In this document: piece by piece, positions 17,712 through 19,124 of the stretch
How the letters are laid out: each line of letters starts with the position of its first letter
How positions within the stretch are numbered: position 1 is the stretch's first letter
Assembly: GCA_963837655.1 (NCBI GenBank)
Contig: CAWIOK010000013.1
Location: forward strand, 54,078-78,077
Source: an uncultured Solirubrobacterales bacterium
GTDB taxonomy: Bacteria; Actinomycetota; Thermoleophilia; Solirubrobacterales; Solirubrobacteraceae
Length of the DNA: 24,000 bases
Direction: 5' to 3'
Notes under the pieces: generated by a model
Database searches by the model: none
Seen by the model: only the letters and a program-made list of their open reading frames with translations
Told to the model about the DNA's origin: nothing
Made by a program: the position numbers and the translations under genes

Positions 17712-19124
17712 TTACGGGACCGCGCCTGTGACGCGCTGAGCTTGCCGGTACGCGTCTATGCCCTTCTGCACCGCCTGGTTGACCCAGTCAGGAAGCGGCT
17801 CCTCCTTCGTCGGCGCGGGTCCCTCCTCCCTGGCGATCGACCGCCCCTCCGTCGCGCGCTGTCTCATCGCGTTGGAGATGCCGGTGATCGCGGCACCGGC
17901 TCCGAGAATTCGAGCACTCCCGCCGACGACGCCCTTCAGGATCTCCTCGTAGATCCGGCGCAGCTCGTCCCGGGCGTAATACGGACTCATGCTCGAAGCC
18001 ACTCCCGTCTTGGAATCCGGCGCGATGAGCGACCACAGGTCCTCGTTGTATTGCACCAGCGTCGAGCGAACGAGCTCGCGCTGCCACTCCGACATGCCCT
18101 TGCGCGCTGCGAGGTATTGATAAAGCGCCGGCTCCGCGGGGAATTCCTGGTAGAACTGATACTCCCTGCCGAACGGCCCGGTCTTGACCCACACCACCAC
18201 GTTGGTGGAATAGCCGGAAGGCCAGGCTGCGGAGAACCTGTTCCTGTACAAGCCGTCCGCGAGGGTCCCGGCCTGAATCTCACGCCGCAGGGCCTCGGGC
18301 GTCCAGCTGGGCAATTCCAGGGCCCGCGGCGCTGAGCGCAACACCTGGACCTGTTCGGCCCAAGATTTCGTCTTTCCGCTCGCGGTCTGGCCTCGCTCCC
18401 CAGCCTGCGCCTGTGATGCCTGCTTCTTCTGCTGATCTTTGTCCGCCTGCTTTTCCTTCTCTCGCTTGTCGTTGGCCTTGTCGATTTCCTTGTAGACGAT
18501 GATCCCCGGCCCGCACCATCGGACCTGGAACCGCCTGCTTGCGTACACAACCTCGGCGGGCAACAGCGCATCGGCCGGGCGCATGGGTGAAAAGACACTC
18601 ACCTCGAACCGCCGCTTCACATCCTCGTTGGCGTTCGCCTTCTCGATGTAGTTGGCGAGCTGCGTTTCGCCGTCCACGACTTCCCAGTTCGCGGGCTTGA
18701 CCTCGGCGAGCAACATCACGCCCCTGCTCCGTGAGCGGAACGCCAGGTCGACATCTCCGTGTCCCGAGCCCTTGTTCCCGATCGACAAGGTGTTTACGGC
18801 CCTGTAGTGCGCGAAGGACGCGTCAGGCAGCCTGATGGGAATCGGCGGTCCATATCCCTGCCGCTGAATGCGTAGGCCCACCTGCTCCCGAATGACCCGG
18901 TGAACGGCTACGCCCGTGAGCGAATCACTGCGCTCGGGGTCCGTCGTGATGAACTCCAGGCAGGTGCTGGATGGTCCGACTGCGCCGCCCGGCGCGCTGG
19001 GGACCGGGTTGCCTTTGGGGGGTTTGCGCTCAGCTGTCCCGGGCGTGTCCGCGCCGGTGGCGGTGCCACGTGCATTGGTCCTGCGGTCGCTCGTCGCTCG
19101 CTGAGCTTCAGCCGGGCTCGCCAT
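17712..19124 (-). CDS. operon gene 3: unknown protein with N-terminal RecB/Cas4-like PD-(D/E)xK nuclease motif set
   Basis: 470 aa, ATG 19124, TAA 17712-17714. The first ~50 aa are Pro/Gly/Ala/Thr-rich. The ordered motifs are GHGDVD(126)LAF, 10 residues, VMLLAE(141)VK(143)P, 11 residues, then Q(155)LANY(159). A Lys/Gln/Asp-rich linker (aa ~214-253) precedes a Trp/Tyr-rich C-terminal ~215 aa with no motif I recognise. Confidence 0.8.
   Translation of the reverse strand: MASPAEAQRATSDRRTNARGTATGADTPGTAERKPPKGNPVPSAPGGAVGPSSTCLEFITTDPERSDSLTGVAVHRVIREQVGLRIQRQGYGPPIPIRLPDASFAHYRAVNTLSIGNKGSGHGDVDLAFRSRSRGVMLLAEVKPANWEVVDGETQLANYIEKANANEDVKRRFEVSVFSPMRPADALLPAEVVYASRRFQVRWCGPGIIVYKEIDKANDKREKEKQADKDQQKKQASQAQAGERGQTASGKTKSWAEQVQVLRSAPRALELPSWTPEALRREIQAGTLADGLYRNRFSAAWPSGYSTNVVVWVKTGPFGREYQFYQEFPAEPALYQYLAARKGMSEWQRELVRSTLVQYNEDLWSLIAPDSKTGVASSMSPYYARDELRRIYEEILKGVVGGSARILGAGAAITGISNAMRQRATEGRSIAREEGPAPTKEEPLPDWVNQAVQKGIDAYRQAQRVTGAVP

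Follow-up and report, generated by a model that had tools for sequence, protein, structure and literature searches.

A predicted PD-(D/E)xK nuclease-like domain in the variable third gene of a conserved cassette from an uncultured Solirubrobacterales bacterium

The stretch of DNA analysed here (24,000 nucleotides (nt) of an uncultured Solirubrobacterales bacterium, contig CAWIOK010000013.1; hereafter the window) contains a cassette of three genes, g1, g2 and g3. The third gene encodes a domain with a predicted PD-(D/E)xK nuclease fold, which we call the X domain (amino acids (aa) 55-216 of g3). The three genes are co-directional and closely packed: the start codon of g2 lies one base past the stop codon of g1 (TGAtATG), and g3 starts 20 nt after g2. 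Their coordinates and those of the features within g3 are collected in Table 1. Scanning positions 17300-23400 for promoters and terminators returned nothing. In g3, the X domain is followed by a low-complexity linker and by a C-terminal region (C-domain) whose hidden Markov model (HMM) matches 32 family members. The C-domain accompanies X in all g3-type proteins, and a fold search of the full-length model gave no significant match for it. The Ala/Gly-rich hydrophobic helix near the C-terminus is conserved in the alignment of close g3 homologues, and similar Ala/Gly-rich segments occur in other proteins encoded directly after g2, a position that we refer to as the third slot.

Table 1. Features of the cassette and of related loci. 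Coordinates are those of the window unless a locus (L numbers) is named; pLDDT, predicted local distance difference test score.
Feature	Coordinates	Strand	Remarks
g1	21192..22916	-	574 aa; first cassette gene; moderately hydrophobic segment at aa 399-417
g2	19145..21190	-	681 aa; highly conserved core protein of the cassette
g3	17712..19124	-	470 aa; variable third-slot protein bearing the nuclease-like motif; from the list of open reading frames (ORFs)
N-terminal disordered leader of g3	18963..19124	-	aa 1-54; pLDDT <50 for aa 1-53
RGT in g3 leader	19062-19070	-	aa 19-21, within AQRATSDRRTNARGTATG
X domain	18477..18962	-	aa 55-216; predicted PD-(D/E)xK fold; AlphaFold2 (AF2) domain model and profile search
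H75 on helix alpha1	18900..18902	-	candidate extra metal ligand
Motif block	18648..18755	-	translates to DVDLAFRSRSRGVMLLAEVKPANWEVVDGETQLANY; within g3
Motif codons	D126 18747-18749; E141 18702-18704; K143 18696-18698; Q155 18660-18662; Y159 18648-18650	-	
g3 cysteines	C55 18960-18962; C204 18513-18515	-	two Cys in all in g3
Lys/Glu/Gln-rich low-complexity linker of g3	18324..18476	-	aa 217-267; low pLDDT at aa 240-267
C-domain of g3	17925..18323	-	aa 268-400; three strands plus helices; conserved; pLDDT ~80-87
Ala/Gly-rich hydrophobic helix of g3	17865..17942	-	aa 395-420, ILKGVVGGSARILGAGAAITGISNAM; hydropathy maximum 1.34
C-terminal PLPDWV motif of g3	17781..17798	-	aa 443-448; P445 and W447 invariant in the homologue alignment
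Fused g1-g2, L010	7069-11049		Salinirubellus plasmid NZ_CP147842.1
Fused g1-g2, L011	6889-10998		Sinorhizobium terangae pCB3126_1
Slot protein with C-terminal D...(D/E)xK-like string, L005	10114-12447		FDRIL...LMRETK, slot protein
Slot protein with C-terminal D...(D/E)xK-like string, L010	11223-12884		MVDHV...PIEVK, slot protein
Slot protein with C-terminal D...(D/E)xK-like string, L011	11021-12802		IDDLE...LVDYK, slot protein

An earlier note on this DNA had read an ordered D...ExK...QxxxY set in g3, and translation of the motif block confirms that it is present. A loose form of the pattern, D-x(10-20)-E-x-K-x(8-15)-Q-x3-Y, arose in about 1% of 20,000 shuffles of g3, and the same pattern with a hydrophobic run ahead of ExK in 0.15%. 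Because shuffled sequences reach it at these frequencies, the motif in one sequence is no more than suggestive, and conservation becomes the decisive evidence. Only 22 homologues of g3 were found among 5.8 billion proteins. In these full-length sequences E141, K143, Q155 and Y159 are invariant, and D126 is kept in at least 90%. The public gene model for g3 (P0003) has 334 aa and is 100% identical to the last 334 residues of the ORF only. It appears to start, at about M137, some 136 codons too late, which would halve the domain by removing helix 1 and D126. The 470-aa ORF is favoured because all g3 homologues are 450-478 aa long; their N-termini are aligned.

The X domain extends well beyond g3-type proteins. 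A genome scan found g3 aa 52-215 embedded in proteins of 1,031-1,113 aa from a Terriglobales metagenome-assembled genome (MAG) and a Gammaproteobacteria MAG. An X profile (alignment A2, aa 55-216) run against 1.84 billion cluster representatives matched 141 of them at E ≤ 0.001 and 48 at E ≤ 1e-10. X occurs in Actinobacteria, Acidobacteria, Proteobacteria, Cyanobacteria and Gemmatimonadota. Public records label these proteins "DUF4157 domain-containing" or "hypothetical" only. Among 131 distant representatives, the residues of the motif are almost without variation where aligned: D126 is kept in 125/125, E141 and K143 each in 130/130, Q155 in 125/130 and Y159 in 129/130, together with G123 (124/125). 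The earlier note had named loss of these residues in orthologues as grounds for abandoning its reading; they are kept almost throughout in both the 22 close and the 131 distant relatives. Further positions conserved specifically in X are N164, M181, W203-C204 and G207, and position 75 alternates between H (66/84 distant relatives) and E (15/84). The resulting consensus is G-x-G-x-P-D-L-A...A-E-I-K-P-A...G-E-x-Q-L-x-N-Y-I-x-K-G-N...W-C-x-P-G.

The cysteines of X form a pattern of their own. C204, in the WC motif, is kept in 123/126 X sequences, and the N-terminal Cys is likewise conserved. About half of the distant relatives have an extra Cys at the position of V149 and some have one in the loop before beta2; counts of 2 or 4 Cys per X domain predominate. 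These conserved pairs could form disulfides or a metal site. The four-Cys iron-sulfur (Fe-S) set of Cas4, with one N-terminal and three C-terminal residues, is absent: the 2 or 4 Cys of X relatives lie elsewhere and g3 has C55 and C204 only, as the earlier note had observed in finding no Cas4-like Cys cluster.

Structure prediction places the motif in a nuclease-like core. The model of full-length g3 was poor (pLDDT 62.6), and its Foldseek matches (PAS/LOV domains and alarmone synthetases, E ≥ 0.13) were set aside as not interpretable at that model quality. For the same reason a domain-only model was used. The AF2 model of aa 55-216, built from a 54-sequence alignment (A3), reached a pLDDT of 87.7 and a predicted template modelling score of 0.83. 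Its elements run alpha1 68-91, beta 98-99, beta 127-130, beta 136-144, alpha 148-165 and alpha 167-172, followed by beta 177-180 and three more strands, four in all up to residue 214. The alpha-beta-beta-beta-alpha-beta order of the restriction-endonuclease core, for which the earlier note had proposed to look around the motif, is present in this predicted structure. D126 lies just ahead of beta2, E141 and K143 on beta3, Q155 and Y159 on the next helix, and H75 on the first helix.

The neighbours of this model point the same way. Of the 31 top Foldseek matches in the PDB, whose significance is weighed below, 28 are PD-(D/E)xK nucleases from five unrelated families: McrC, the R2 retrotransposon protein with its restriction-like endonuclease domain, bunya/arenavirus cap-snatching endonucleases, AddAB and TnsA. 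Annotated matches among viral models (BFVD) include "PD-(D/E)XK endonuclease-like", Cas4 exonuclease, Exodeoxyribonuclease 8 and a restriction enzyme. Alignment A3 was also compared by hhalign with the single E. coli sequences of YraN, McrC, Mrr, RecB, MutH and HsdR and with 14 control proteins. Against the C-terminal 280 aa of RecB (probability 2.4%, score 20.5) the D...DYK motifs fell in register (GFIDLVF...LLDYKS), as did GGEIDLI...FVEV against YraN (probability 4.2%). Both scores exceeded those of all 14 controls. Taken qualitatively, the assignment of X to the PD-(D/E)xK fold is well supported by the model, and we hold it with good confidence.

X proteins fall into two classes, the g3-like proteins without DUF4157 and the DUF4157 proteins. 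The g3-like class (32 sequences) has a leader, X, a charged linker and the conserved C-domain; a Pfam search of g3 found no match to PF13699. The X proteins of the Terriglobales and Gammaproteobacteria MAGs both carry DUF4157/eCIS_core (PF13699), a marker of toxins of extracellular contractile injection systems (eCIS) that usually lies N-terminal to the toxin (PMC8213781, PMC11297309). Roughly half of the toxins predicted for injection systems contain DUF4157, in most cases as their sole annotated domain (PMC11297309). Of 160 family members, 95 have an HExxH motif N-terminal of X; in the rows inspected, the distance is a few tens of residues. PF13699 was confirmed in 24 of 33 X representatives; apart from it, Pfam recognised just OmpA, in two of them, and no other toxin domain. 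X mostly sits directly after DUF4157/eCIS_core, often as the sole other globular domain there. In the Gammaproteobacteria MAG, the locus of the DUF4157-X gene also holds a Baseplate_J gene. By the same Pfam approach, no injection-system domains were found among the window ORFs tested.

The regions C-terminal of X in the DUF4157 proteins (P0148-P0273) form at least 24 unrelated clusters. Charged linkers comparable to aa 217-267 of g3 follow X in these proteins also. In most of the tails that were inspected, a charged or Pro-rich linker leads to pairs of Ala/Gly/Leu-rich hydrophobic helices, often round a DPEP turn. Twenty-three proteins of the class have just ~110-175 aa past X, apparently linker plus hydrophobic helices. 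One subgroup of tails has long Gly/Ala/Ser-rich, glycine-zipper-like repeats, and two of its members give weak, sub-threshold matches to CIS_TMP.

The slot that g3 occupies is hypervariable. Among 71 loci (70 plus the window), the slot after g2 holds ~50 distinct full-length types, while the accompanying g2 remains 44-86% identical; six of the 71 slots hold g3-type proteins. One locus with an 86%-identical g2 has an unrelated 450-aa protein after it. A conserved module with a hypervariable effector gene downstream is the layout of polymorphic toxins, and the slot proteins of a haloarchaeon (L010) and a Sinorhizobium (L011) carry the pre-toxin TG (PT-TG) domain PF14449 (E 3e-9 and 2e-13). This context supports the suggestion in the earlier note that g3 is the natural effector of its operon.

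Proteins of the slot, otherwise unrelated, share an N-terminal leader with 1-3 RG[TLVI] motifs (consensus [SDEN]-R-G-[TLVI]-x-[DPN]-R-[GA]), which reads QRGTGDRGT in g3 homologues. The motif occurs in the first 60 residues of 46/66 slot proteins, against 8.1 +/- 2.6 (maximum 16) in 1,000 composition-matched shuffles. It is present in 20% of internal 60-residue windows, and 14 of 18 similarity clusters have it in the leader. The leader may be a cargo or recognition signal.

A further X-like domain lies just upstream of g1 in L014 (2901-4250) and in L015, where a 449-aa protein joins it to a slot-type N-terminal module. That module (YARYRA..TWVSAS..PDRIxPGQEYL) is common to many slot proteins. 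The X-like domain (PDIVLD...FEEIKPDN...GEGQ) aligns with X by hhalign from the helix-1 His through PD, EIKP and GEGQ (probability 72.6%, E 3e-5). The protein is evidence of module shuffling among cassette cargo. A transitive search from its X-like domain gave just two unannotated proteins. C-terminal D...(D/E)xK-like strings in the slot proteins of L005, L010 and L011 (Table 1) might mark further toxins of restriction-endonuclease fold and line up with X by hhalign, but are not counted as nucleases because the probability is below 1%.

In front of the slot, g2 is highly conserved. Its homologues number at least 956, with 63-100% identity among the best 120, and its alignment (A4) has a mean column identity of 74%. 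A haloarchaeal megaplasmid encodes a protein 38% identical to g2, and g2 also matches Sinorhizobium megaplasmids; searches of IMG/VR viral contigs and of phage genomes gave no match. Homologues of g1 upstream of g2 (L002, L005, L007, L008) are more variable than g2, at 34-63% identity. The order g1-g2-g3 is kept in L002, L016, L038, L040 and L080, and in the haloarchaeon and the rhizobia g1 and g2 are fused into one protein of 1,326-1,369 aa. Neither g1 nor g2 matched Pfam, PADLOC, NCBIfam or PHROG, and the g2 profile gave low-complexity or chance matches only against PDB sequences. The conserved g1-g2 pair with its hypervariable, leader-tagged third gene is the more novel element; no description of it was found in the literature covered. 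One metagenomic contig (L001, 8376-11410) holds g2 broken into pieces of 380 and 80 aa beside DDE transposase genes, with an intact g3 homologue (P0015), and is thus a cassette copy in decay.

The G+C content is 0.60-0.67 across the cassette (about 16000-22500) versus 0.70-0.75 just downstream of g3 (~10-16 kb), which suggests horizontal acquisition. The reading of an ORF at 17461-17688 as an IS110 transposase fragment was unsupported by searches and was dropped. A heliorhodopsin gene (13054-13839, + strand; PF18761, E 5e-90) lies ~4 kb from the cassette and appears unrelated to it.

The most likely reading is that the X domain is active as a nuclease and that g3 has an effector role, and we regard it as probable. 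g3 would then be an exchangeable effector or toxin with nuclease activity, and g1-g2 would handle, control or deliver it. D126 and E141, helped by H75, would hold one or two Mg2+ or Mn2+ ions, K143 would position the attacking water, and Q155 and Y159 would contact the nucleic-acid backbone. From these putative roles, X would cut DNA or RNA. The g1-g2 genes range over Actinobacteria, Proteobacteria and other bacteria, with the fused form in a haloarchaeon. As a more tentative proposal, g1-g2 could be an undescribed cargo-handling or delivery machine, independent of cell-envelope type, that reads the RG[T/L/V/I] leader on diverse effectors. The X nuclease would be one such effector, exchanged by recombination with the contractile-injection-system pool.

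A number of results weigh against nuclease activity of X and an effector role of g3. Pfam gave no match at E ≤ 1 for whole g3 or E ≤ 10 for isolated X; for g3 and isolated X there was no relevant NCBIfam match and no PADLOC or PHROG match; and PDB sequence searches with g3 and X profiles returned low-complexity or chance matches only. No Foldseek match of the X model was significant, either in the PDB (best E 0.089, TM-score ≤ 0.40) or in BFVD (all E ≥ 0.057), and none of the six E. coli nucleases matched significantly by hhalign, with probabilities of only 2-4% for RecB and YraN. The earlier note had likened the motif to RecB/Cas4 or to YraN/VRR-NUC proteins. This likeness stands at the level of the superfamily, given the invariance, the predicted fold and the neighbours, but these search results do not support membership of those families; the YraN family (PF02021) and VRR_NUC profiles likewise matched neither g3 nor isolated X in the Pfam search. 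The same failure of structural, profile and curated-family matches to reach significance is what favours a convergent or spurious likeness, with the D/E/K/Q/Y residues serving other chemistry or a structural role in a different fold. We consider this highly improbable: the model is of high confidence and canonical topology with each residue on its expected element, five independent nuclease families dominate the neighbour list, and the H/E alternation on alpha1 has a counterpart in the cap-snatching endonucleases, which come in H- and E-types.

Other adverse results bear on function. X does not occupy the C-terminal "warhead" position. In the DUF4157 proteins it is the constant part, with tails of at least 24 unrelated kinds behind it, and in g3 it lies on the N-terminal side of another conserved domain; an accessory role for X is therefore conceivable. 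No candidate immunity gene emerged: in six loci, the 2.5 kb past g3 contained no conserved ORF of 70 aa or more, and no fourth gene co-varied with slot type among the ORFs covered (at least 55-70 aa). g1, g2 and g3 have no signal peptides, and the sole candidate membrane segment among them is a weak one in g1. X-family members also have one or two conserved Cys pairs, which is not usual in nucleases of the cytoplasm. From the position of X, the missing immunity gene, the Cys pairs and the lack of signal peptides follows a rival in which X, though of PD-(D/E)xK fold, serves as a constant accessory module, for nucleic-acid or ligand binding, loading, maturation or membrane docking beside DUF4157, and the variable tails, or the C-domain of g3, carry the effector function. 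The place of X between DUF4157 and its tails is indeed that of a constant region in polymorphic toxins, its N-terminal place in g3 is always paired with the C-domain, and a role in loading or chaperoning has been suggested for DUF4157 itself (PMC11297309). Yet the D/E/K, Q/Y and H/E set is invariant in ~130 divergent sequences, whereas inactivated PD-(D/E)xK domains usually lose such residues; 23 proteins have only a short tail past X, and no tail has a known toxin domain. An accessory role is doubtful in our view. Lack of signal peptides, of clear transmembrane helices and of an immunity gene would also suit an intracellular anti-phage defence of the abortive-infection type, in which g1-g2 sense infection and release or activate a swappable effector (g3), instead of an inter-cellular toxin system. 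Variable effectors behind conserved components, occurrence in archaea as well as in one- and two-membrane bacteria, and a G+C content below that of the flanks, suggesting horizontal transfer, fit it too. However, g1, g2 and g3 match no PADLOC model at E ≤ 1, and g2, with its best 120 homologues at 63-100% identity, is far more conserved than usual defence proteins. The slot, moreover, holds PT-TG domains and a domain common to DUF4157 effectors, both typical of secreted toxins, and the common leader resembles a cargo signal. We judge the defence reading unlikely.

The X domain offers a testable enzymatic assignment for a subset of DUF4157 toxins and links DUF4157 effectors to a second, uncharacterised cassette whose g2 has roughly a thousand well-conserved homologues. 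If g3 is an active nuclease handled by g1-g2, the cassette would represent a new way to deploy polymorphic toxins or defence effectors, and the RG[TLVI] leader would be a candidate targeting signal, usable to find or load cargo.

Among known nucleases, X resembles RecB, AddAB and Cas4 in the order hhD...hhh(D/E)xK...QhxxY and in its similar spacing. Q155-LAN-Y159 is a QhxxY motif on helix 148-165, as in those enzymes, and AddA and AddB are among the Foldseek matches. X differs from them in having no Cas4/AddB-type Fe-S Cys set, helicase attachment or CRISPR context, and in its extra family-specific motifs KGN, M181 and WCxPG. The bunya/arenavirus cap-snatching endonucleases are its most frequent Foldseek neighbours, with TM-scores of only ~0.27-0.30. 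These enzymes have the order H/E...PD...ExK and comprise H- and E-types, with His or Glu on the first helix; X likewise has the H/E alternation at position 75, then PD, then ExK. They are, however, viral RNA endonucleases at the N-terminus of L polymerases and have no sequence similarity to X. Since no curated model matches and membership of RecB, Cas4, YraN or PoNe is unsupported, we read X as a new and divergent family of the PD-(D/E)xK superfamily that has so far gone unannotated and is common to DUF4157 injection-system effectors and the g1-g2 cassette, BaCT having been compared by description only.

PoNe and BaCT, the nearest precedents in kind, are PD-(D/E)xK DNase toxin families that standard searches had missed; they were recognised from motif and secondary structure and later verified biochemically (PMC6688995, PMC7073777). 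X is like them a divergent domain invisible to standard models in modular polymorphic effectors, but it lies internally or N-terminally, unlike the C-terminal PoNe and BaCT domains. The PoNe motif is Kx3GExnGIDx2YxnYx3ExK (PMC6688995), and the X consensus has neither GIDxxY nor Yx3ExK; no Pfam match to a PoNi-type (DUF1911/DUF1910) immunity protein was found in the ORFs downstream of g3. BaCT, of ~300 aa, is reported as nearly restricted to Bacteroidetes and sometimes fused to DUF4157 (PMC7073777), and X is set apart from it by description and taxonomic range only. Another parallel in architecture is Tme, an effector of the Streptomyces davawensis contractile injection system, which combines DUF4157, predicted membrane helices and a nuclease domain (PMC11126660). 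The DUF4157 X proteins resemble eCIS effectors and Tme in their charged linkers and hydrophobic helices, and one lies in a locus with a baseplate gene. The Tme nuclease, however, is EndA-like and C-terminal and, unlike X, is not of the PD-(D/E)xK type (PMC11126660), and g3 differs from eCIS effectors in having no DUF4157. As for the cassette as a whole, it is distinguished from the PT-TG polymorphic toxin systems (bioRxiv 10.1101/2025.10.01.679605) by having no known trafficking domain (LXG, WXG, PAAR, RHS or CDI) and by the absence of detected cognate immunity genes, and it shares with them a conserved module followed by a highly variable effector gene.

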